From a virus (Duplodnaviria > Caudoviricetes), in IMG/VR virus record IMGVR_UViG_3300014204_013734, positions 192,001 through 256,000 of that record: a stretch of 64,000 bases of DNA, one strand, 5' to 3'. How positions within the stretch are numbered: the stretch's first letter is position 1; each line of letters starts with the position of its first letter. The position numbers were made by a program, and so were the translations under genes. Shown here in pieces: positions 2,238 to 56,698 of this stretch. Under the pieces are notes generated by a model. That model did no database searches. It was not told where the DNA came from and worked only from the letters and a program-made list of their open reading frames with translations.

Positions 2238-2269
2238 TTTCAGTTCTTGGCGGAATCCGTGGTGGATTT

Positions 2270-2278
2270 TGTTAAGTT
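2270..2278 (+). promoter_or_regulatory. possible extended -10 sigma70-type promoter for the 2308 operon
   Basis: TGT-TAAGTT (TGn + TAnnnT) in the intergenic gap, about 30 nt upstream of ATG 2308. Confidence 0.3.
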
Positions 2279-2307
2279 TGATAGACAGACAAAGGAAGGC
2301 AAGGATC

Positions 2308-2712
2308 ATGAAAACGTTTGACGAAATCTACAAAGACACGGATTCATTGGACGACAAGGCCCTCTTGGATTCCTTGCGGGAAGAATCCAGGTGCAAGCTG
2401 GCGTCGGAAAAGTTTCTCCACCAATTCGGTGATCTGTTTGCTGCTGTTGAACACAACAATGTTCGGGTGTCTGATGTCGTCACGTCTGTGACCATTTGGA
2501 CGGACTTGCGGAAAAACTATCCAGAATACGTGGATCCTGAAACGGAACTGTCCGTTCTGAAGGATGGCAGGATGGGAGGTTTGTGGGGCGCCAATGTGTG
2601 GGTTGACAAGACGGTGCCTCCCAACCATATCCGCGTCTATGGAGAAGATGACCCGGCGTTCGCATCCGAATGGCCCAAGTTCGCATCTGCAGCGGAAAAG
2701 TTGTGGACCTGA
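2308..2712 (+). CDS. small protein resembling a fragment (A-domain region) of an HK97-fold major capsid protein
   Basis: AAGGAAGG-type RBS before ATG 2308; segment FAAVEHNNVRVSDVV...WTDLRK...VDPETELSVLKDGRMGGLWGANVWVDKTVPP shows the G-x-L-W-G-x-x-V-x-V-x-x-x-VP pattern of HK97-type capsids; only 134 aa. Confidence 0.5.
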   Translation: MKTFDEIYKDTDSLDDKALLDSLREESRCKLASEKFLHQFGDLFAAVEHNNVRVSDVVTSVTIWTDLRKNYPEYVDPETELSVLKDGRMGGLWGANVWVDKTVPPNHIRVYGEDDPAFASEWPKFASAAEKLWT

Positions 2713-2761
2713 ACTTCTACGGCAAAAGCCATTTGACGACCGAACAAAGGAGTTTTTGAAT

Positions 2762-3655
2762 ATGACCGAAAAGAAGACATTTCAACCATTTCCTGTTCAG
2801 CGGGTCATCATCAAGGCTTTTCGTGGCATTCAATTGGATTCCGTTGCCAAGTTCAGCATCCTGTCGGATTGGAAAAAAGGGAAGAAGGAAACCGTTACTG
2901 AGACGTCCCTCCTTCATTACCTTCACGATGAAGGCATGTGCAACACTTGGAAAATTGAAGTTGGAAGACCCTTCCAACAACTCGTTCTTTGTGCTGGACG
3001 TCGGGCTGGCAAGAGCTTTGTGGGGCACCGTCTCGTGGCGGATGCTTTCAACGAATTACGGTCTACGGATGATTTCCGAGTCGGTTTGGGTCTTGGGGAA
3101 GAAGAAGACCTGAACATGGCGGTTGTCGGCGCATGCAAGGAAATGACAGATTATTCCATGAATGCTATTTGGGATAATTTGAAGGGGGATGATTCGTTAG
3201 CACGGGTTGTCGGACGGATTTCAGATCCTAAACGCCGTTGTCGCATTGTAGCCATGTCGGCTTCCGGCAAGGCGTTGCACGGCAGTAAGAATTATTTCAC
3301 CTTTCTGGATGGAACCATACACGGCCCGAACCCCGATAAGGTTTACAGGTTGGCTCTGATGTCCGGTAAGGGCTTTAAGGGGTCTGCGGAAAGTAAAGTT
3401 GTGTCTGTATTTTCTCCGCCGATCATGCAGAAAGGTGCTGATTTCGCTTACAGGTTTTGGTTGTCGGCCCACCAGGATGCCGGGAATACCCTTTGTTTTC
3501 GCATCCCTTCTTGGGTGATGAACCCGACGATTTCCCGGGATGTGTGGAAGCAGGAAGCAGATCGTATGGACGAAGCCGTATTCCGGGCGGAATACGGGGC
3601 TGAATTTGTTAGTGCTGATGGAAAGCCGTGGAAAAATACAAAGGACCTTTACTAA
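2762..3655 (+). CDS. truncated terminase large subunit-like protein (ATPase domain only, degenerate Walker B)
   Basis: RBS AAGGAG; Walker A LVLCAGRRAGKS; Walker B-like YFTFLDG lacks the catalytic Glu; C-terminal PSWVMNPTI...FRAEYGAEF is typical of the TerL ATPase-nuclease linker; no RNase H-like nuclease follows. Confidence 0.7.
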   Translation: MTEKKTFQPFPVQRVIIKAFRGIQLDSVAKFSILSDWKKGKKETVTETSLLHYLHDEGMCNTWKIEVGRPFQQLVLCAGRRAGKSFVGHRLVADAFNELRSTDDFRVGLGLGEEEDLNMAVVGACKEMTDYSMNAIWDNLKGDDSLARVVGRISDPKRRCRIVAMSASGKALHGSKNYFTFLDGTIHGPNPDKVYRLALMSGKGFKGSAESKVVSVFSPPIMQKGADFAYRFWLSAHQDAGNTLCFRIPSWVMNPTISRDVWKQEADRMDEAVFRAEYGAEFVSADGKPWKNTKDLY

Positions 3656-3674
3656 GCGTTGACGGGAGGATTCT

Positions 3675-5009
3675 ATGCTTCATCAATGGGCTGGATGGGA
3701 AGTAGATCTACTGTCGGCGACACGCCCTTGGCTTCCTGCATCCGATCTTATTAGTTTGTTCAAGGCGTGCGGATCCGTCAGATCCAAAGATTCTTTGAAC
3801 AACAAGGCAACTGCTCTTGGTATTGACATACGGGGGCACAATGCCGAAAAGGCACTGTCAGCGGTCATCAAGTCAAAAATCCCACAAAACCTGAAACAAT
3901 TGGCGGTTACGTTCCTTGGAGGGGTTCCTATCGATACGTCGGAAATCGGGGATCCTTCAAAGGTAGCTGACCGAGTGGAAATTGACAAACTTCGGGGTAG
4001 GGTCCGGTCCCTTGAAAAGGACTTGGAAGAAGGCACCTATTTCGGCAAAATCGTGAAGGATCTGTTTTCCAAACCGGTTTCGGTTCCGGATTGGGTTCTG
4101 GCAGCCCCCAAGAAGAAATCAGGGAAGGTAGCGACCCCCCAACTGCTCATCAGTGATTGGCATTATGGGGAAGTCGTGGACCCGAATGCCATTTGGGGAG
4201 TCAACGAATACAACCCAGAAATAGCTGTCCGGCGCCTGCACCGTGTAGCACAAGCTGCTACCTCCATGTTCAAGGAATACTTGTCGGGATGGCGGTATGA
4301 CGGCATCATAGTCCCCTTGGCAGGGGACATGATTTCCGGCAAGATTCATGCAGAGTTGGAACGTACAAACGCCGAACAGTTGACTGATTCCGTTTTGTCC
4401 TGGTCAGCCGAATTGGCGCGTATGCTTACTGTCCTGGCGGATGCCTTCGGCAAAGTTTACGTTCCAGCGGTAGTTGGAAATCATGGCAGGGAAGATCTTA
4501 AACCTTCCATGAAGCAGGCCGTGGCCCGGAACTACGATTATCTGTTGTACCGACTTGTGAAACGGGAAGTGCATAATGATCCCCGTATTACGGTGGATGT
4601 GTCCCTTTCTACTTCACGTAGGTACACGGTTTACGGGCAGGGATACCACTTGATGCACGGTGACGATTTCAAGGGTGGTAGCGGTATTGCCGGTTCCTGG
4701 TCCCCTTTGAAACTCGGAGAACACCGGACGACGCAACAGTTCATGGATTTGGGACATGATTTTGAGTCTGGGTGTTTGGTTCTTGGGCACTTCCATCGTC
4801 GGATGACCGATATTGGTCTGATTGTCAACGGGTCAGGGATCGGTTACAATGAATTTGCATTCCGGAAACATTACAAATTCGAAAGACCCCAGCAGGCGGC
4901 GTGGATCACAACCCCGGAAAATGGCCAGACTTTGGAATTCCCTGTATTCTGTGATTCCCACGAGGAATACGAAGCCCAGATAGTTGCCGCCAGACTCTTG
5001 AACAAGTGA
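3675..5009 (+). CDS. calcineurin-like metallophosphoesterase with N-terminal helical/coiled-coil extension
   Basis: All five motifs present: SDWHYGE, GDMISG, GNHG, HGD, GHFH; RBS GGGAGG. Confidence 0.85.
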   Translation: MLHQWAGWEVDLLSATRPWLPASDLISLFKACGSVRSKDSLNNKATALGIDIRGHNAEKALSAVIKSKIPQNLKQLAVTFLGGVPIDTSEIGDPSKVADRVEIDKLRGRVRSLEKDLEEGTYFGKIVKDLFSKPVSVPDWVLAAPKKKSGKVATPQLLISDWHYGEVVDPNAIWGVNEYNPEIAVRRLHRVAQAATSMFKEYLSGWRYDGIIVPLAGDMISGKIHAELERTNAEQLTDSVLSWSAELARMLTVLADAFGKVYVPAVVGNHGREDLKPSMKQAVARNYDYLLYRLVKREVHNDPRITVDVSLSTSRRYTVYGQGYHLMHGDDFKGGSGIAGSWSPLKLGEHRTTQQFMDLGHDFESGCLVLGHFHRRMTDIGLIVNGSGIGYNEFAFRKHYKFERPQQAAWITTPENGQTLEFPVFCDSHEEYEAQIVAARLLNK

Positions 5010-5038
5010 AGGAGGTAGATTACAAATAATTTCCTTAT

Positions 5039-5255
5039 CGTTCCCCCACTTATGTGGGGTGATCTTGGAACCCCTTTGGTGAGTATTCCCCACATCAGTG
5101 GGGATGAACCGCGGCGTGGATTACGTTCCCTACACACGTGGGGATGGCCCGTGCTCGGCGTTTGTTCGTTCCTAATTCCCCACGTTAGTGGGGGTGACCC
5201 GTGGGACATCACCTTAGATTTTGATGTTGTTCCCCACATTAGTGGGCGTTGACTG
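5039..5255 (+). CRISPR. degenerate type I-E-like CRISPR mini-array (5 repeats, 4 short spacers), no cas genes in window
   Basis: Repeats at 5039-~5065, 5083-5111 (GTATTCCCCACATCAGTGGGGATGAACCG), 5123-5151, 5173-5201 and 5227-5255; 29-nt unit with CCCCAC-N4-GTGGGG hairpin and GRTGRNCCG 3' end like I-E repeats; spacers ~17, 11, 21 and 25 nt. Confidence 0.85.
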
Positions 5256-5271
5256 ACCAGAGGGGTTCCAA

Positions 5272-6471
5272 TTGTACTTTCAGTTAACCGAACAATTGAA
5301 ACGACGGTTCATTTTAGAACTCCGTCGTTTCTGGTCTACACATCCCCACTACTCCGACATTGTTGACAAAATTCAAGGGAAGTTTTCCTTCAAGGAACGT
5401 CCTTCCTACGGCATTATTGTCAAGACTTCCGGAGGTAACCGGGTTGACCTTTCCGCCGACAACTATATGGCTATGACGATCAGTTACGTCCACTTGGCGC
5501 GTGCAAGAAACAATCCTGGGGTTGCCATAGAATGGGTTCGTGAAGATTCTGTTGCCATTCAAAATAATGGAGGTATTTTTCCGTCTCTGCCTGGTGTTTA
5601 CTGGATTGAATTGACGGAGGATACTGAATTTTACGTTGACCCTCTCCTGAACATTGTCGGGGAAATCCCAACCCCTATTGACCTTACGACGTTTCAGTTG
5701 CAGCACGCCCCTGTTGCTGGGACTGTCCGTTTGTATGAGATGCCTGCCCGTTATATGTTGGTAGAGGGACAGAACTACACACTTTCCCTTGGACCTGATG
5801 GGAAACCGAATGGTGAAATCATTCTGACGACTCCGTTGACCAGAGACCGCTTTCTGGTAGCGGATTATCGTTTTCCAGCCCCCTCCCGTGGACCTTTCGT
5901 TTTGAACCCCGGTTATGCTGATAACAAAGCAATCCCGGGTGTGATTTTGGCATTTGGTAGGAGGAATCAGAAGGGTGATAAACTTGTTGTCATCGTTGAC
6001 GAAATTCGTCGTCCAGTTGCGTTGGAGTATGGTGGAAAATGGGACGTCACCTTAGATTTTGATGTCATTGCCAGAGATGTTCATGCACAGCAGGAAATTG
6101 CAGATGCAACCGTCGTCTGGATTTGGGCTGTCCTTCGGTCTTGGATGTCCCAGGAAGGTTTGGAAATTACCGACCTGTCCATGGGGGGTGAATCGGAGGA
6201 AACCTACGATGAAGCTGGTGACGACTATTTCTACAACTCTTCGTTTTCCTTGACCGTTCAGACTGATTGGCGCCTCCAGGTTCCTTTGAGTGCCTTTATC
6301 CGGCAAGTTACTCCTGAAACCAGCATTTATGCCCGGGGATTGGCTTCTATCCCGGATGCCCAGTTGGCTTTAACCCAACAGGGGATTAGGGCGGCTACCG
6401 ACTTGGGTTTGGAACTGGTTTCCGACCCCTTCTTTTCCGGGCGTATTGCCACATACGAACAAGTCCGGTGA
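5272..6471 (+). CDS. tail completion/neck-like virion structural protein
   Basis: 399 aa, TTG start after GAGGGG RBS; beta-rich, C-terminal DFDVIARD...QQEIAD...SFSLTVQTDW resembles tail-terminator folds; located upstream of sheath. Confidence 0.55.
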   Translation: MYFQLTEQLKRRFILELRRFWSTHPHYSDIVDKIQGKFSFKERPSYGIIVKTSGGNRVDLSADNYMAMTISYVHLARARNNPGVAIEWVREDSVAIQNNGGIFPSLPGVYWIELTEDTEFYVDPLLNIVGEIPTPIDLTTFQLQHAPVAGTVRLYEMPARYMLVEGQNYTLSLGPDGKPNGEIILTTPLTRDRFLVADYRFPAPSRGPFVLNPGYADNKAIPGVILAFGRRNQKGDKLVVIVDEIRRPVALEYGGKWDVTLDFDVIARDVHAQQEIADATVVWIWAVLRSWMSQEGLEITDLSMGGESEETYDEAGDDYFYNSSFSLTVQTDWRLQVPLSAFIRQVTPETSIYARGLASIPDAQLALTQQGIRAATDLGLELVSDPFFSGRIATYEQVR

Positions 6472-6993: not shown

Positions 6994-7809
6994 GTGCGGA
7001 CCTATTTGATTTACAAGGCAACTTCTCCTTCCGGGAAGATTTACGTAGGGCTTACCAGCCAAAAAATGAAGGTGAGAAAACACCAACATTATTCGTCAGC
7101 TAAGCGGTTTCAAAGTTCTGGGGCTTTCCAGAAGGCCCTTCTCAAGTACAGGACTGCTATGACGTGGGACATCTTGGAATCTGGACTTCCTGACTTTGAA
7201 GCTGCCGCTGCCAGGGAACGGTATTACATAGCCTTGTTTGGAGCAAATATCTCAGGTAAAGGCTACAACCACACGGAAGGAGGGGGTCAAGGAAGACCCT
7301 TGAATTCCAAGAATTCCAAATCTAATATTGATCCGGTCTTGCGTTCTGATGGGATTGTTTTTCCTTCTGCACGGGCTGCTGCTTTGGCTATGGGAGCAAA
7401 GTGTGATTGGGCTGTTGGAAAGGCCATCAAGAATAAAGGCACCTGTGGTGGATTTTCTTTTCGGCGGATATCCGTTGAAGAATATGAATCTTTGAAAGAA
7501 ACATGTACCCCTAAGAACGTTCCCATTGTTCATTGGACTTATGCTAGGACTTTTTCTGATGCCGTCAGACGGAAGATATCGGAAACAAAAAAAGGGAAAC
7601 CTTTAAAGCACACCAGCAAACCTGTTAGGCGTTCGGATGGGGTTTTGTTTCCGTCCATAAAAGAAGCAGCGATTTCGGTTGGTACGACATCAGACGCTTT
7701 ACGCTATGCTGCACAAAGAAACCAACTTTGTCATGGGTTTTTATTTGAGATTTTTCCGAAAGGAATTTCGGTGGTCGCCCTATTGAAACCCCTTGGTGGA
7801 CAGGATTGA
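6994..7809 (+). CDS. free-standing GIY-YIG homing endonuclease (Seg-like) with NUMOD-type DNA-binding repeats
   Basis: LIYKATSPSGKIYVGLT (GIY-YIG), R..QH, ERYYI, GYN; duplicated PV.RSDG..FPS...AA..G modules; RRKISETKKG NUMOD3-like. Confidence 0.85.
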   Translation: MRTYLIYKATSPSGKIYVGLTSQKMKVRKHQHYSSAKRFQSSGAFQKALLKYRTAMTWDILESGLPDFEAAAARERYYIALFGANISGKGYNHTEGGGQGRPLNSKNSKSNIDPVLRSDGIVFPSARAAALAMGAKCDWAVGKAIKNKGTCGGFSFRRISVEEYESLKETCTPKNVPIVHWTYARTFSDAVRRKISETKKGKPLKHTSKPVRRSDGVLFPSIKEAAISVGTTSDALRYAAQRNQLCHGFLFEIFPKGISVVALLKPLGGQD

Positions 7810-48110: not shown

Positions 48111-51013
48111 TGTCAGATCAGGCCCAATGGGGAACCCTGACAATCAAGGTTCCTGATTTTCTGGAAAACGCCAAGGATGCTGTCAACAGTGTCGCGGAAT
48201 TCCTTGTCAATATTCTGGACATTGTTATGGCTGCCTTGGATTTGGTCAAGGCATTTCTGTCGGCCTACATCGACCCGATATTGTCCCTCATCCAGAAAAT
48301 CATTGATGAATTGAATTCGTTGATAAGAGACATCCGGCAAATGGGGATATACATTACCGGAGACTGGAAATTGTTCAAATATCCTTTTGATGATTTGCGT
48401 GGAGGTTATTCCGCGTTTGAACGTCGAATGCTTGTTCGTATGACCGATAGGACGGACCCGACCAGACCGGACGTGTCCGGTAATATGAAGGTTCTCGGGT
48501 CTTTCTTTTACTTGTCTGTGGATCTTTCCGAAATGCAGCGGCTTGTTGCATTTATCATGCGCCTGATCGCTTTTTTCAAACAAGATTGGTCCAATACCTC
48601 ACTTCCGACTTGCACGATCACAGAAGTTCGTTACGGAACTGGTACTGTTGATATCCTTCATCCAATGTCCCTCGGGGATGCTTTTCAATTGGACAGCACA
48701 CCGCCGCAGATGGCACAGGTACGATGGAAGATTCGGACGGATGTAGGACAGCAGAATCCGTTCAATCCATTTCCTCCTACTATGTTTGGTCCTGATGGGT
48801 TTCTCGTTACGGTGTCTACCTTCCCGGACGGAATCAAGGTGTGCTATGACAAACCTCAAACGGATACAGACACTCAACCGAGTAATTCTGATCCTTCTGT
48901 GAAGATTCAGCCCAGATCTTACGGTTTGGTAAGAAAGCAAGACGGGCGGCCTCTTGTGTTGCATGGTGGGACGCAATTGCTTACTGTCCCTTCATCCATG
49001 GGATGGAATGAGGCCACAACCGATATAGGTACTTCTCCGGGGAAAGTGCGGGTTTATGGCCAAGGTCCGGCCGCCATGAACGCCCCAATTCCATTGGACG
49101 AAATGGAGGACTTTTTTCAAAGGTCCTTCTGGGTTGACACTACATCAACCGTGTTCCAGTCATTTACGGGGGAGTATTCCATCAATTTTGGTTTGAAAGA
49201 CATGCCGCGGGAAGGGGCTGTGGTCATTGGGTCGGGAAATCAGGTTAGCATTGAACCTGTAACCGGTCCTGATGGGGATAGACGGGCGGGGACGGTTCAT
49301 GTCCGGGTTGCAGCATGCAACAAAGCAGCCTTGGAAAAGACTGTGTGGGATCTATCAAACCCCATGGCTTCCAAACTGGGACCTATGCCTGGAATTCTGG
49401 TTGCCCCGACTGCAGAAGGTGTCAACATTACGGATATCGGGGAATTTTCTTCCCCGCAAAGAGTCACCTTTCCGAACGCTTATACGGCGCAATACTTACA
49501 ATCTGTTCAAGCGGCGTTGGTCGTCCTTTTCCTTAGTCGTCCTGATTTGATTCCTGTCGACCAACTCAAGCAGGTTCTTTCCCCCGATCAGATTGCCCAA
49601 ATGACATCGTCTCCCCCCAGTCTTCTCGTGGCGGGCACCGTTCAATCGGTTTGTGGTTTGGAATCCCTGAAGCAGCTTTTACGGGTTTTGTTTGACGGGG
49701 CTCTGGGTCCGCAGTGGCAGTACAAGCAGCGAGGCGGGCAGCCCCCGTCATTCCGGTTGGCACTGTGGCGCCGGATTATGAAATTCACGCAGGATTTGTA
49801 TGCGCGGACCGGTTCCATGCCTGATGTGGAACGATTCGTTGCAACAAATACTACCTATCTTCGCAATGTTACCTGGGGGGACATCTTGCGTCCTGCATAT
49901 CCTGATCTGGCGGACCAGGTAGCGGATGCCTTCTTGCAGACAAAACTTCTGGATTCCTTGAACGCATCCGGGGAATCGGGGAATGACGGGTCTGTAGTCG
50001 GGAACCTGCAAGGTTCTGGTGTAGCGGTCAATCCCTGGTGTATTGGCATTTCGGACGTTGTGGTAGACGATTTATTTTATGATCCGGAAGCCATTTTGGG
50101 TCGAACCGAGGCGGGGATGTATGAAGCGAAGACGGTAGATCCGGGGATCACCCTTCAGCGGATGGTGCTTGCTGTTGATGCACAAGCGTACATTGCGGAA
50201 CTTCCTTCCGGGCTTCGGGAACGCTACAAGAAGTACATCCAGGAAGATGGTTCTATTCTGGTTCCCGACGAAGACTTCAACGCTTTGGAAGAACAGGTTA
50301 CGACAGGCAAGACGGAAGGTTCTGCCGATTGTTCCCCCGTTGTCTACAACGAAAATGGGGCTAATTCTACCATGGTTTTCTGCCGGGGTTTGCTTGTCAA
50401 CCATGAAGGTCCGACCGGGGTTGGCCAGCTCATCACTGAAACGCAGATTGCTCTCGGTTTAGCAGGGTCTTTGTGGAAACGAACTGATGACGGGGCATGG
50501 ATAGCCATCCGATTCTTTGATATTTTCCCTGGTGTTGACGACTTCTTGGAAACGCTCCGCAACTGGATGGAAGCCATCAAAAAGATGGTTCAGTCCATCG
50601 TTGACACCATCATCAAATATATTGAATGGTTAGAAGCCCGCATCATGGATCTTCAGCAGTTGATTCGAAGGATTAACGCCCTTATCCAATCGCTTCTCGG
50701 ATTCATGTTCCAGATTCCCGCCTGTTCATACATGGCGTGCGTATCAGACGGAACCGGAGGATTGCTGTCGGATTTCATGGGCGCCCGCAACAAACCGGGG
50801 GACAGTCCTTTGGCTTACGGGGCTGGGATTGCTTTGGTTGTACCCTTTTGTCCTTCTTTCCTTTACGATTTGTTTTCGGCGTTCTTTGCCCCGGAACCAG
50901 GGCAGGAACCTTCTGGGGTCTTAGCTGCTCCGGCTCCTCCCGATATGATTCCGCTTAACGGTTTGGCACCCCCGGCGGGGGAAAGTCAGGATGATCCTCC
51001 TGACATTTTGTGA
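48110..51013 (+). CDS. virion-associated protein with amphipathic helical termini
   Basis: 967 aa; long helical heptad segments at N- and C-termini. Confidence 0.6.
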   Translation: MSDQAQWGTLTIKVPDFLENAKDAVNSVAEFLVNILDIVMAALDLVKAFLSAYIDPILSLIQKIIDELNSLIRDIRQMGIYITGDWKLFKYPFDDLRGGYSAFERRMLVRMTDRTDPTRPDVSGNMKVLGSFFYLSVDLSEMQRLVAFIMRLIAFFKQDWSNTSLPTCTITEVRYGTGTVDILHPMSLGDAFQLDSTPPQMAQVRWKIRTDVGQQNPFNPFPPTMFGPDGFLVTVSTFPDGIKVCYDKPQTDTDTQPSNSDPSVKIQPRSYGLVRKQDGRPLVLHGGTQLLTVPSSMGWNEATTDIGTSPGKVRVYGQGPAAMNAPIPLDEMEDFFQRSFWVDTTSTVFQSFTGEYSINFGLKDMPREGAVVIGSGNQVSIEPVTGPDGDRRAGTVHVRVAACNKAALEKTVWDLSNPMASKLGPMPGILVAPTAEGVNITDIGEFSSPQRVTFPNAYTAQYLQSVQAALVVLFLSRPDLIPVDQLKQVLSPDQIAQMTSSPPSLLVAGTVQSVCGLESLKQLLRVLFDGALGPQWQYKQRGGQPPSFRLALWRRIMKFTQDLYARTGSMPDVERFVATNTTYLRNVTWGDILRPAYPDLADQVADAFLQTKLLDSLNASGESGNDGSVVGNLQGSGVAVNPWCIGISDVVVDDLFYDPEAILGRTEAGMYEAKTVDPGITLQRMVLAVDAQAYIAELPSGLRERYKKYIQEDGSILVPDEDFNALEEQVTTGKTEGSADCSPVVYNENGANSTMVFCRGLLVNHEGPTGVGQLITETQIALGLAGSLWKRTDDGAWIAIRFFDIFPGVDDFLETLRNWMEAIKKMVQSIVDTIIKYIEWLEARIMDLQQLIRRINALIQSLLGFMFQIPACSYMACVSDGTGGLLSDFMGARNKPGDSPLAYGAGIALVVPFCPSFLYDLFSAFFAPEPGQEPSGVLAAPAPPDMIPLNGLAPPAGESQDDPPDIL

Positions 51014-53176: not shown

Positions 53177-56100
53177 ATGGCTGATAACTTGAAGACACCC
53201 AGATTTTACGGTCCCGATAATGTGCTTCGGGACACGTTTATCTTCACGACCGATCTGCCTTTTCGGTTTTTTAATGGTGTCATTGACGCTGATACCGTTG
53301 ATATGCAGGTGTCAATTAGGGGCGGTGCCTTCACCAGCGATCCTGATTGGATTGCTTTTGAAGGTACGGAATTCAGCATCCCAAATCCAACGGCATGGCC
53401 TGATGGTCTTCAATTGCTTCCGGGGGACAATTTAATCGAAGCCCGAGCTATCCTTTCCAATGGCGATGTGTCTCCTGTAGGGTCCGTTCTTGCCAAGTTG
53501 TCTCTTGAACGGGATGTCAAGGCTAGTGTCATTGCCCCTTCGGAGATTTTCGTGGAACGCCTGGACGGGGTCGTGAATATTTGGGTCAACGGTTTAGATG
53601 ACCCGAACGTGACCGGATACCTCTTTTACGCGTCCGTTTCCCCTGGGGGGGGAACTGCCGGATACTTGCAGCTTACCCCACAACCGGTTATTTCCGGGCA
53701 AGCCACAGAAGATGTGCAGGGAATGTCCGAAATGACCGTGGATGCCACGGTAGCCACAAATTCAGAAGGGTTGCATGCAGCGGAACCGCTGTTCCTTCGT
53801 GTCCTGCAGGAACAAACTGATAGACAGGGGACTGTCATTCAGACGGATTGTAACCAAGCCACGACGATCCCAGACACGGTTTCGCAGATTCGAACTACCG
53901 TGTCTATCAGTTCAGTTCGAACGACTACCCGATATATGTTTTCTCATAGCCGGCTCGCGAACAATACAATCACATCGTCAAATCCGACGATCCCCCATGC
54001 GGAATTCAACGCGATTCCAGACACGGAACCGTTGTATTACGTAGTCACTGCCCTTTATTTGATTGATGGTGTTGAATACGAATCATCTTTTTCTCCGGAA
54101 GTTGCGGCCGAACCTTTGACCGTTCGTCCTATGGTGTCCGCCCTTCCTGTCGTGACTAGAGAACAGATTGTTAGGTCTACGGTTTTGTCCATTTACCGGA
54201 CACATCCTGAAGTGGATGTTAAAGAAGGTTCCGTTTATCGGGACACGGTGATTGATCCGTTTTCCAGTGAAGCGGAACGTATACGATTCGTCATAGGATT
54301 CATCCAGGCGGCTCAAAGTTTCACTACATTGTTGGCCATTGATGATCCTGGGGATTCGGGAACGTCGGTTGCCGTATCCCTTTCTCCGTACAAACAAGCT
54401 TTGAAGCAGGCGTTCTACTTGTCGACCGACAAGGATGTCCAGAACCTTATTGACAACGCCTTCGATCACATAGCTGCCCGCAGGGGCGTCAAACGTAAGT
54501 ATGGTTCCAGGGCAAACGGTGAATTGGTTTTCTACCTCCTTGCCCGTCCTGCCGTGTCACAGTTCATTCAAATCGGTCAAATCGCGACTTCTGGGGGGAC
54601 CCAATTCCGTACGACATCCGCCGGTTGGATCACCCCTTACGGGTCGGGTTCCGCTTATAGTGCAAAGACAGGCCGATGGGCTGTCCGTCTGTTTATTCAG
54701 GCATCAAATCCTGGGGCGGCTGGCAATGTGGCGGTAGGGCAAATCAGGTCCTTGGTTGGGGGGCCTCCTGGTGTCCTGTGTTACAACGATGCTACGACCT
54801 TCGGCGGGACGGACACGGAAACCAACAAACAACTCGCTACTAGGGCAGATGGGGTCCTTTCTTCGGTTGATACAGGGACATACCGAGGGTACGTTCAGAG
54901 TGGTAATGACATCCCTGGGGTTCTTGAAGCCAAAGTCGTGGATGCAGGTAATTCGCTCATGCTTCGGGACATTGATCCTTCCACGGGCAAGCATACCGGG
55001 GGGAAGGTAGATGTCTGGATGCGTGGTGAAAGTCTGGCGACGATAAGAGACAGTTTTGCCTTTTCCTTTGAAATCGTGGAAAACGGTCAATTTGAACCGG
55101 TAGGGGCATTGTCTGATTTGAAATTCAGAGCGGTAAATTCCAGCATCAGTGCTGACAACCCGATCATTGAAATGCTGGACATACCTGATTGGGGTTATGA
55201 ATTCGTTGATACCCGCACCGGCAAGGTGTTTGATCTTACGGGTGTGACCATCATTCCACCTGACATGATTCAACTTGCCACTTCTTTGAACGATCCCCTT
55301 GACATTGCTATCACTGATTTGTTCACAGGGTCTTATCGTTGGAGGACCAGTAACAGGCATGTATTTGGGCGGCAACCGGTTCGGGAAGTGACGGAATTGG
55401 TAGGTGAAGTGACGGGAACTGTGAACCCCGATTACTACAAGCTCTTCGCCGGGAGTCAACCGCTTGATCTTGGACGTTCCGTTGAAGCGGGGGATTACCT
55501 TCAGGTTATCCAACCACTTGGACAGACTCCCTTGCAAATCCCATCCGGGCAACCGGTCACTGTTACCGGTGAACGTCATGTTATGCTTGACGGAACGGAA
55601 TGGCTTTGGAGTCTTGGCATCAACCCTCTCACGGTCAAGGTTTGGAATCTTGGCCGAACGGTACAATATTGGAGTCCTTACCAACCGGGTGTTGAACCCG
55701 ATTTCACCTTTGTCCCTGAATCCGGCGAAGACCCCCTTGGCATCAAACCTACCGCTCTTTCCAGGATCACGGATGGTGAGGAAGTTCTGGTTGATTACGA
55801 ACACGATGAAAACTTCGTCGTCACCTATTCCGTGAATGCTATTGTGTCGTCGGGACAAGCTGTTTTGGACAACGAAAGGCATGCAACTGCCGATGTTCTG
55901 GCGAAGGAAACACCACAGACTGGCGTTGACATTACAGCAACAATCGTTCTCAAAAAGAACACCAACACGTCAGCGTCCGACAGTTCTGTCAGGACCGCCC
56001 TCGGGCGCCTGTTTGGGACATTCAAGATGGGGACTCCAATCCGGCAGTCCGATGTTGATGCAACCATCAGGCTGGTTTCCAACGTTGCTTATGTAGTATT

Positions 56101-56698
56101 GCCGTTGACGAAATTGGCTAAATCCGACGAGTCCGAAGTTATTTTGGAAGAGGTTACGGTTTCAGCCAAGACGGACTGGTTCAAAATCACGGATTGGTCA
56201 ACCAGTGAAGTTGACATGATCCTTCTGACGGAACCTTTGGAATCAGGAACCTTGGATGGAGGCGGTAATTTCTGGGAACCAAGGGCGGTTTACTTTAACG
56301 AGGAACTTTTAACAACTTGGGACACCCCTCCAGATGCTGACGGGGTTCCTATGAATCGGACGCAATGGGGGGCATTCATTATCGGGAATGGGGGTCTGAA
56401 TATCCCGAAATACAGTGACGATGCTACGTTGAAGGTTAAGTATCCTTTCGCTTCCGATGCGGAAATCATGCAATGGAGGATCACCTTGACGGCTCGTCGC
56501 ATCATTGTAGCCCTCCCTTCTGGAACGGACCCTACGACAGGGACGTGGAAGGCGGATTACATTGTCCATGGCGACACGGGAGTGAAGAATATTGTCCCAG
56601 GACCTATTGAAGTTTTGACACTCGGGAATCTTGAGTTCACATATGACGAGGAACCTGATTTCTCGTCCCAGGTTAGCGGTGGAACACGGAGTTCTTGA
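53177..56698 (+). CDS. baseplate J / gp6-like wedge protein
   Basis: DVKEGSVYRD, FDHIAARRGVKR, A.NPGAAGNV, FGGTDTETN..LA.R, GGKVDVW motifs. Confidence 0.8.
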   Translation: MADNLKTPRFYGPDNVLRDTFIFTTDLPFRFFNGVIDADTVDMQVSIRGGAFTSDPDWIAFEGTEFSIPNPTAWPDGLQLLPGDNLIEARAILSNGDVSPVGSVLAKLSLERDVKASVIAPSEIFVERLDGVVNIWVNGLDDPNVTGYLFYASVSPGGGTAGYLQLTPQPVISGQATEDVQGMSEMTVDATVATNSEGLHAAEPLFLRVLQEQTDRQGTVIQTDCNQATTIPDTVSQIRTTVSISSVRTTTRYMFSHSRLANNTITSSNPTIPHAEFNAIPDTEPLYYVVTALYLIDGVEYESSFSPEVAAEPLTVRPMVSALPVVTREQIVRSTVLSIYRTHPEVDVKEGSVYRDTVIDPFSSEAERIRFVIGFIQAAQSFTTLLAIDDPGDSGTSVAVSLSPYKQALKQAFYLSTDKDVQNLIDNAFDHIAARRGVKRKYGSRANGELVFYLLARPAVSQFIQIGQIATSGGTQFRTTSAGWITPYGSGSAYSAKTGRWAVRLFIQASNPGAAGNVAVGQIRSLVGGPPGVLCYNDATTFGGTDTETNKQLATRADGVLSSVDTGTYRGYVQSGNDIPGVLEAKVVDAGNSLMLRDIDPSTGKHTGGKVDVWMRGESLATIRDSFAFSFEIVENGQFEPVGALSDLKFRAVNSSISADNPIIEMLDIPDWGYEFVDTRTGKVFDLTGVTIIPPDMIQLATSLNDPLDIAITDLFTGSYRWRTSNRHVFGRQPVREVTELVGEVTGTVNPDYYKLFAGSQPLDLGRSVEAGDYLQVIQPLGQTPLQIPSGQPVTVTGERHVMLDGTEWLWSLGINPLTVKVWNLGRTVQYWSPYQPGVEPDFTFVPESGEDPLGIKPTALSRITDGEEVLVDYEHDENFVVTYSVNAIVSSGQAVLDNERHATADVLAKETPQTGVDITATIVLKKNTNTSASDSSVRTALGRLFGTFKMGTPIRQSDVDATIRLVSNVAYVVLPLTKLAKSDESEVILEEVTVSAKTDWFKITDWSTSEVDMILLTEPLESGTLDGGGNFWEPRAVYFNEELLTTWDTPPDADGVPMNRTQWGAFIIGNGGLNIPKYSDDATLKVKYPFASDAEIMQWRITLTARRIIVALPSGTDPTTGTWKADYIVHGDTGVKNIVPGPIEVLTLGNLEFTYDEEPDFSSQVSGGTRSS

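Follow-up and report, generated by a model that had tools for sequence, protein, structure and literature searches.

A huge phage of the class Caudoviricetes (Duplodnaviria) carries, directly upstream of a structural gene, a short array of units resembling the repeats of type I-E CRISPR (short palindromic repeats that are clustered and regularly interspaced) systems, and the first spacer-like segment of this array, S1, is complementary to the ribosome-binding site (RBS) of that gene. Is this pairing an RNA switch by which the phage could sense the CRISPR machinery of its host, as an initial annotation had proposed, or does the complementarity have another origin? We addressed this question in a window of 64,000 nucleotides (nt), positions 192,001 to 256,000 of IMG/VR record IMGVR_UViG_3300014204_013734, and in the whole 381-kb virus record (the genome being at least that long), which holds phage genes and 35 transfer RNA (tRNA) genes and whose completeness was estimated at 72%. 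Positions are those of the window unless the genome is named. The pairing between S1 and the RBS is real, and a Cas-sensing RNA switch is plausible as only one of several explanations. The reading that we favour, and to which we give about an even chance, is that S1 is one of four truncated pseudo-spacers in a cas-less, phage-borne array of type I-E crRNA-like (CRISPR RNA-like) units of the Racr/Cracr kind, located in the leader of a neck gene and aimed at, or derived from, the phage's own locus.

The two arms of the helix and the gene that follows them are:

5065-5084, plus strand: 5' arm, made of S1 plus 3 nt of the handle of the preceding repeat (R1) and 2 nt of the following repeat (R2)
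5252-5271, plus strand: 3' arm, which holds the Shine-Dalgarno (SD) sequence AGAGGGG at 5259-5265 and ends one base before the TTG at 5272; its minus strand is the protospacer of S1
5272-6471, plus strand: neck or tail-terminator-like structural gene of 399 amino acids (aa) with a TTG start, conserved in huge phages

The repeat finder gave two arms of 20 nt each, 167 nt apart and complementary at 18/20 positions (90%). Both this program and direct reading of the sequence bore out what the initial annotation had described: a core of 16 bp with one U-G pair (5076:5260) between 5065-5080 and 5256-5271 and, beyond a G:G mismatch (5081:5255), renewed pairing of AGT (5082-5084) with ACT (5252-5254), the 3' arm holding the SD next to a start codon that homologues also support. 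None of the 2000 shuffles of the 5' arm 20-mer equalled its score within ±1.2 kb, and the 3' arm was its top non-self match across the entire 381-kb record. The annotation had further expected the helix to close a loop of CRISPR hairpins and to occlude the RBS, and had suggested folding 5010-5300 as a check. The minimum free energy fold of that stretch included the helix (z = -5.8), with a predicted energy of -33.3 kcal/mol for the arm duplex; four hairpins of the Cas6e type, built from units of the I-E form, lie between the arms; and the SD was predicted to be paired with a probability of 0.99-1.0 in every transcript holding both arms, as against 0.1-0.66 without the 5' arm. Since the S1 site adjoins the array on the other strand, any transcript that holds both arms is predicted to bury the SD in the helix. 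A second inverted repeat (5265-5275 / 5292-5302, 11 nt, 91%) encloses the TTG start. The final 7 nt of the 3' arm also belong to this repeat, which would be a competitor of the long-range helix and is formed in arm-free mRNA. An Rfam scan of 4500-5800 gave chance-level matches only, and its CRISPR-DR6 match at 5265-5302 (E 4.7) was rejected as this small start-codon hairpin, not a repeat.

In silico, an RBS-complementary element and the RBS are thus separated by Cas6 hairpins, which is the layout of a Cas6 switch and exactly the geometry of the engineered Csy4-released cis-repressors. One could therefore picture a dedicated device responding to Cas6e or Cascade, in which the neck gene would be silent until Cas6e cuts the hairpins of the loop or Cascade captures S1, so that late structural expression would be an indicator of the host CRISPR machinery or would take its timing from it. 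The folding predictions go along with this idea up to a point, the SD being fully paired in the presence of both arms and largely unpaired if the 5' arm belongs to a separate molecule. But after Cas6e cleavage the cut arms are still predicted to favour a trans duplex by -26 kcal/mol. The persistence of this duplex means that release would need Cascade loading, RNase III or decay, and simple release of the RBS by Cas6 cutting appears doubtful. With such a device, a conserved structural gene would also come to rely on a host enzyme that is absent or silenced in many hosts. As a whole we regard it as unlikely, and return to it below with the evidence from the other spacers and from the leader of the gene.

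The array consists of the following elements:

5039-5067, plus strand: R1, a degenerate type I-E repeat mimic with an extra C in the stem and an aberrant 3' handle (TGATCTTG)
5068-5082, plus strand: S1, pseudo-spacer of 15 nt in the canonical register, part of the 5' arm
5083-5111, plus strand: R2, a near-canonical type I-E repeat whose third base is the sole difference, in 25 non-loop positions, from the commonest real 29-nt repeat
5112-5122, plus strand: S2, pseudo-spacer of 11 nt
5123-5151, plus strand: R3, with one G-U pair in the stem
5152-5172, plus strand: S3, pseudo-spacer of 21 nt
5173-5201, plus strand: R4
5202-5226, plus strand: S4, pseudo-spacer of 25 nt
5227-5255, plus strand: R5, degenerate, with C in place of G as the closing stem base where Cas6e is expected to cut and with the handle GTTGACTG

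The five units have the form 5 nt + CCCCAC-N4-GTGGGG + 8 nt and are mutually 67-83% alike. A canonical type I-E array has near-identical 29-nt repeats, a 61-nt period and spacers of 32-33 nt; the present array departs from it in the divergence of its repeats, in its start-to-start spacings (45, 40, 50 and 54 nt) and in the length of its spacers (15, 11, 21 and 25 nt). The repeat pattern TTCCCCAC-N4-GTGGGGATGAACCG with a 61-nt period was found in real arrays of many bacteria and archaea, and the 29-nt form with this period at 82 loci from such arrays; a repeat form common to arrays of so many phyla does not allow a host to be named. Three further units of the I-E type are solitary and lie elsewhere in the genome on the same strand, which brings the total to eight. 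The stem was kept in 8/8 of these units while every loop differs, a signature of selection on the hairpin.

The solitary mimics, at genome positions 48962-48987, 53400-53425 and 56253-56278 (L004, L001 and L005, plus strand), lie within a cluster of 21 tRNA genes (49.2-59.2 kb). The genes for tRNA-Arg and tRNA-Gly enclose one of them, another is located about 90 nt upstream of tRNA-Ile, and a promoter-like site (TTGACA...TAATAG) is found about 130 nt upstream of one of the mimics. Co-transcription with tRNAs could supply these mimics with high early expression and ready-made processing; the paper describing Racr makes no mention of tRNA (PMC10651486). A protein-coding reading of the array was rejected. 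The 66-aa open reading frame (ORF) at 5052-5252, which runs from an ATG in the R1 loop to a TGA in the R5 handle and is open across the whole array, probably by chance, is of unremarkable length and has no Pfam match, and conserved stems with variable loops fit RNA.

When the pseudo-spacers were compared with the genome in the canonical I-E register, all four had significant near-matches less than 900 bp away, in the two flanking genes or in the RBS:

5254-5268, minus strand: protospacer of S1, 13/15 identities (18/20 with the overhangs), flank TTG; 43/2000 shuffles in the canonical register, 0/2000 with the overhangs
4897-4907, plus strand: protospacer of S2, 10/11 identities, flank AGG, mismatch silent; 4/1000 shuffles
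4358-4378, minus strand: protospacer of S3, 19/21 identities, flank AAC, both mismatches at silent third-codon positions; 0/1000 shuffles
6040-6064, plus strand: protospacer of S4, 24/25 identities, flank AAA, mismatch V/I; 0/1000 shuffles
3675-5009, plus strand: upstream gene of 444 aa, exonuclease-type (PHROG family phrog_284, E 2.4e-38; no Pfam match), which holds the protospacers of S2 and S3

For S1, S3 and S4 the local site, within 850 bp of the array in each case, was also the top non-self match genome-wide. The four alignments (4/4) begin at spacer position 1, the end proximal to the protospacer-adjacent motif (PAM), and run over 8 nt (S1) and 10 nt (S2) of uninterrupted PAM-proximal match; in S3 and S4, seed positions 3 and 7 differ from the genome of the phage itself. 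Two protospacers are on the plus strand (S2, S4) and two on the minus strand (S1, S3), and three have A-rich flanks of the I-E type (AGG, AAC, AAA) according to the PAM set of E. coli I-E. The four coding mismatches, three of them synonymous third-position changes and one V/I, look like allelic or escape differences. Three controls, namely 26 pseudo-spacers from other short-spaced I-E-like units of viruses, 36 canonical spacers from a second huge phage (G004) and the flanks of the three solitary units of the present genome, gave only background scores in cis. The phage G004 (IMGVR_UViG_3300021978_000001, 437 kb, with terminal repeats) carries 47 type I-E repeats in at least 8 separate small arrays on one strand (L178/L179, 13000-31300), with canonical 32-nt spacers plus one two-unit element with a 20-nt spacer; none of its spacers has a match within the 40 kb examined, save one spacer common to two arrays.

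Since S2 and S4 are in the sense orientation and thus unable to pair with the mRNA, the common denominator of the four pseudo-spacers is a relation between spacer and protospacer at the level of DNA, and not RNA regulation. S1 and the RBS appear to be one of four such pairs, with nothing special about S1, and the self-matching points to a spacer-protospacer origin and not to a purpose-built riboregulator. The proposal of an RNA switch therefore held only in part: the helix, the hairpins in its loop and, as described below, the recurrence of RBS masking speak for it, whereas the idea that S1 was made for this purpose does not agree with four pseudo-spacers that all copy nearby DNA. For the dedicated device, three other spacers that self-match equally in the absence of any RBS are likewise an unfavourable point.

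The clustering of the targets could instead indicate an inter-phage weapon or a homing element. The spacers would be aimed at near-identical siblings that lack the array, the phage's own copies would be protected by silent, seed or flank differences, tight linkage would join weapon and antidote, and the complementarity to the RBS would be a by-product of the position of the first protospacer. This would explain why the four targets all lie beside the array, no more than 900 bp away, why the mismatches are silent or conservative and allele-like, and why S3 and S4 mismatch their own genome in the seed; the PAM-type flanks, the location of the S4 target in the most conserved motif of the neck protein (GGKW..TLDFD) and the position of the array at the edge of a variable hotspot are also in line with it. 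Proximity of targets and own-locus mutations have also been described for the mini-arrays of the viruses SPV1/SPV2 (PMC6858448). But spacers of 11-25 nt between diverged repeats are unlike a working I-E interference array, and the expected siblings did not appear in the population data. Contigs from four runs of three studies (landfill and groundwater) carried the identical sequence with 0 differences and contained neither an array-less allele nor a joint skipping the array; no sibling with perfectly matching sites was found in these four metagenomes or in the contig collections. The S4 site, in either allele, was not found in viral and metagenome contigs once the phage's own records were left out, which is not evidence of absence, and the nearest relatives have 4-6 mismatches to S4. 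We consider a weapon or homing element rather unlikely. In the comparison with 5081-5122, the same four runs (X1-X4) also yielded abundant short contigs of genuine I-E repeats within 3 mismatches of R2, those of high depth being 3-4 mismatches away, joined by 32-35-nt spacers. We regard them as candidate arrays of a host, and their presence means that organisms with a matching I-E system share the habitat.

The same matches could also have been left by a host. According to this explanation, a piece of a host I-E array primed against the phage was captured by recombination near the protospacers and then made harmless as its spacers were truncated, its repeats decayed and escape mutations arose; it would be kept, if at all, as repeat decoys, and the pairing of S1 with the RBS would have no function. 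The clustering of the targets, the PAM-type flanks one step away from AAG, the silent escape-like mismatches, the truncations that leave nothing but the PAM-proximal part and the degenerate end repeats would all be accounted for, and three solitary units are retained elsewhere, so that repeat decoys as such seem to be selected. The split between two plus and two minus protospacers, though, lacks the strong strand bias generally expected of I-E priming. A conserved gene should pay a price for a 20-bp helix that covers its RBS, unless this helix is tolerated or useful, the match extends past the spacer register, and the identity of the sequence in three studies is contrary to free decay. Such a disarmed relic is in our opinion improbable.

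Alternatively, the partial matches of S1 and S2 could guide Cascade to the phage's own DNA for repression, in the manner of CreA/CreR. Mini-Cascades with S1 and S2 would flank the array and throttle transcription of the neck gene or of the array with no cutting, an idea akin to the suggestion of the initial annotation that a released crRNA might silence the gene in trans. The PAM-proximal matches of S1 and S2 do resemble the partial matches of regulatory crRNA-like RNAs, and a sigma-70-like promoter match (4822-4850, 10/12) is found about 40-50 nt upstream of the S2 site. But our scan for sigma-70 promoters and terminators gave match counts at chance level, the handle of R1 is aberrant, TTG, which flanks the S1 site, does not belong to the standard I-E PAMs, the seeds of S3 and S4 contain mismatches to the DNA of the phage itself, and partial matches would risk priming against the phage itself. 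We hold this self-repression to be very unlikely.

What the pairing may mean for the gene can be approached through its relatives. The neck protein has 826 homologues at E<=1e-10 and is also encoded on a 444-kb contig. Its structural model (predicted local distance difference test score 78.7) retrieved with Foldseek, as top matches with low template modelling scores, the neck protein of phage 812 (8qkh_G, E 8e-9), that of E217 and lambda gpU. The product is thus predicted to have a neck/tail-terminator-like fold, close to the tail-completion gene of the initial annotation. The TTG start at 5272 is backed by homologues that begin with MYFQLTE or MYYQLT at the aligned codon. Leaders and start codons were compared among 61 non-redundant relatives with aligned starts (loci L186-L265), a comparison that brought out one further feature:

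5026-5039, plus strand: leader element ATAAT-N2-CC-N-TAT, conserved upstream of the neck-gene family; possible promoter -10 or 5' untranslated region element

This element (CCTAT at -45..-30) was recovered, 30-43 nt ahead of the start codon, in about 20/61 relatives, against 0.057 occurrences per 100 nt in gene bodies. It is present only once in the 381-kb record, directly 5' of R1; we thus rejected it as a general phage promoter and regard it as gene-specific. Its location places the array inside the neck gene's own leader and, if the element marks the start of this leader, both arms would be on the neck-gene transcript; it is from this element that we infer their presence on one RNA.

In the relatives with the element, the SD lies in the 3' arm of a local hairpin (pairing 0.96 in L246, 0.91 in L189 and L234, 0.85 in L209) whose arm sequences differ from one relative to another. 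Across the family (n=61), SD pairing was 0.66; the value was 0.62 when the upstream sequence was shuffled (Wilcoxon p = 0.004) and 0.52 in a set of 50 neighbouring genes. The start codons of the 61 relatives were ATG (29), GTG (14), TTG (6), ATT (8) and ATC (4), so that 52% were non-ATG; ATT and ATC made up 20% of the starts, with no in-frame canonical start upstream in those cases. Weak initiation seems to be favoured for this gene, which probably encodes a low-copy protein, and the combination of SD hairpins with weak start codons in half of the relatives makes RBS masking look ancestral. This masking provides indirect support for a function of the S1/SD pairing. It is not covariation of the S1/SD helix, because no relative carries the array: relatives at 43-77% protein identity had no homologous array, and their upstream genes also differ, while the sole other copy of the array locus (L163) is 100% identical. 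For the dedicated switch, the recurrent masking, the leader element 5' of R1 and the extension of the S1 match past the spacer register on both sides are favourable points, to be set against the lack of any homologous array that would offer covariation.

The surroundings of the array are those of a variable locus. The array is housed in the intergenic stretch of 262 nt (5010-5271) between the exonuclease-type gene and the TTG-start neck gene. The gene order was fixed in the relatives (Volactin gene, variable stretch, neck gene, Zn-ribbon gene and a gene of about 1770 aa), and the array is located at the right edge of the variable stretch. This hotspot (2238-5271), between the gene for the actin-like Volactin (PF25216) and the neck gene, was variable across the loci L180-L185, with no gene in L180 and 1-6 small genes in the five others; in the present phage it contains a 175-aa ORF, a TerL-like ORF of 363 aa, the 444-aa exonuclease-type gene and the array. 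Further downstream, the Zn-ribbon gene and the 1765-aa gene are separated by a homing-endonuclease-like ORF (6994-7809; phrog_314, E 5e-18), at a position that is gene-free in six relatives. We found no cas genes beside the array, and PF08798, PF09344, PF09481 and PF01867 (Cas6e, Cas7e, Cse1 and Cas1) were absent from the 381-kb record, which is 72% complete.

From the array anatomy, the match statistics and the predicted folding, which the analysis yielded directly, we infer a scheme in which the array is transcribed, processed by Cas6e, acts as a decoy and affects translation. R2-R4 and, with less certainty, R1 and R5 would be bound by host Cas6e and cut into short crRNA-like RNAs occupying Cas6e, Cas7 and Cas5, so that the array would be mainly an RNA anti-CRISPR of the Racr/Cracr kind, with spacers derived from, or directed at, the same locus of the phage itself or of near-identical siblings, comparable to the mini-arrays that Sulfolobus viruses carry. 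The S1/SD helix would replace, over a loop of 167 nt, the local SD-masking hairpin of the relatives and hold translation of the neck protein low on unprocessed mRNA containing the leader; cutting by Cas6e between the arms would loosen this block, the trans duplex remaining.

Several observations weigh against this crRNA-like decoy array. R2-R4 alone look fully competent for Cas6e, since R5 is without the closing G at the cut site, and the aberrant handle of R1 means that the S1 RNA may not load into Cascade. Unlike the matches of S2-S4, that of S1 overruns the register, taking in 3 nt of the handle and 2 nt of R2, an extension more easily explained by selection on an RNA helix than by a plain spacer. 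S2 is the weakest of the four, its score being tied by matches elsewhere in the genome. Work on Cascade with shortened spacers indicates that 11-25 nt are too short for normal I-E interference. The excess of SD pairing in the family is modest and individually significant in 8/61 relatives only, and siblings with perfect sites were missing from the metagenomes and collections cited above. The four rival explanations partly overlap. One could also combine a natural Cas6e-gated switch, in which the machinery that the array decoys would determine when the neck gene is translated and the phage would sense the CRISPR status of the host, with other spacers that mark the locus for sibling exclusion or homing; to this combination we assign only a small chance.

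The closest known systems are viral RNAs that mimic CRISPR repeats. Cracr arrays, or crRNA-like regulatory RNAs, such as CracrIE of a Salmonella prophage, combine pseudo-spacers of 21-24 nt with degenerate repeats (Liu et al., bioRxiv 10.1101/2024.10.29.618823). Like them, the present locus is phage-borne and cas-less, with several degenerate I-E units in one transcription unit that flank shortened pseudo-spacers (11-25 nt here) and with an end repeat defective for processing. Cracr arrays are known with two or three spacers, whereas there are four here. Cracr spacers copy host CreR/CreA and target host cas or toxin promoters, with at least 9 PAM-proximal bp to the cas or creT promoter; here every pseudo-spacer matches the phage genes that flank the array, with an RBS covered in one case, and the best matches, in a search of the phage genome, are in the phage itself. 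Racr are solitary repeat units that act as RNA anti-CRISPRs, RacrIE1/2 having been shown to be active (Camara-Wilpert et al. 2023, PMC10651486). They share with our locus the repeat mimics with stem and handle in a cas-less virus, and the comparison of R2 with the real I-E repeat showed a virus-encoded, subtype-like repeat with its hairpin. The three solitary units of this genome fit the Racr definition directly. The five-unit locus is not solitary, and single Racr repeats have no spacer logic, in contrast with five units, self-matching pseudo-spacers and a position in a structural-gene leader. Until now, Racr (2023) and Cracr (preprint 2024, latest version 2026) have been recognised in two roles only, that of decoys and that of guides directed at host promoters. 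The locus described here differs in that it lies in the leader of a structural gene, all of its pseudo-spacers copy the phage neighbourhood and one of them masks an RBS.

The Sulfolobus portogloboviruses SPV1/SPV2 carry mini-CRISPR arrays with spacer targets near the array and point mutations in their own locus (Medvedeva et al. 2019, PMC6858448). These are cas-less viral arrays too, and as in them the targets of the present array are close by and the phage's own sites differ from the spacers by point mutations. The SPV arrays are those of archaeal viruses and have leaders, repeats that are uniform and spacers of full length, and their sibling targets have been demonstrated, whereas here the spacers are truncated to 11-25 nt, the repeats have diverged and no sibling with perfect sites was found. 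If the spacers nevertheless target siblings, the still unexplained pattern of targets beside mini-arrays would extend from archaeal viruses to huge bacteriophages and would suggest a linkage of weapon and immune site, or a logic of homing.

Translational cis-repressors released by Cas6f (Csy4) work in synthetic circuits (reviewed in PMC8621321). The order of parts, an RBS-complementary element, Cas6 hairpins and the RBS, is the same; the circuits are synthetic, with one hairpin and a designed release, and the present locus is natural, with four hairpins and a helix predicted to persist in trans after cutting. If the masking does respond to Cas6e, this would be the first natural case of a Csy4-type design and a phage reading the CRISPR state of its host. 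In phage T4, late genes such as e (lysozyme) have RBS-masking hairpins on read-through transcripts. There also the SD is paired with an upstream complement, so that translation is limited to some transcripts or conditions. T4 relies on a local hairpin and an internal late promoter, whereas here the loop is a CRISPR-like array and no internal promoter was shown. Location in a leader, four truncated self-matching spacers and masking of an RBS are three features that none of the systems compared combines.

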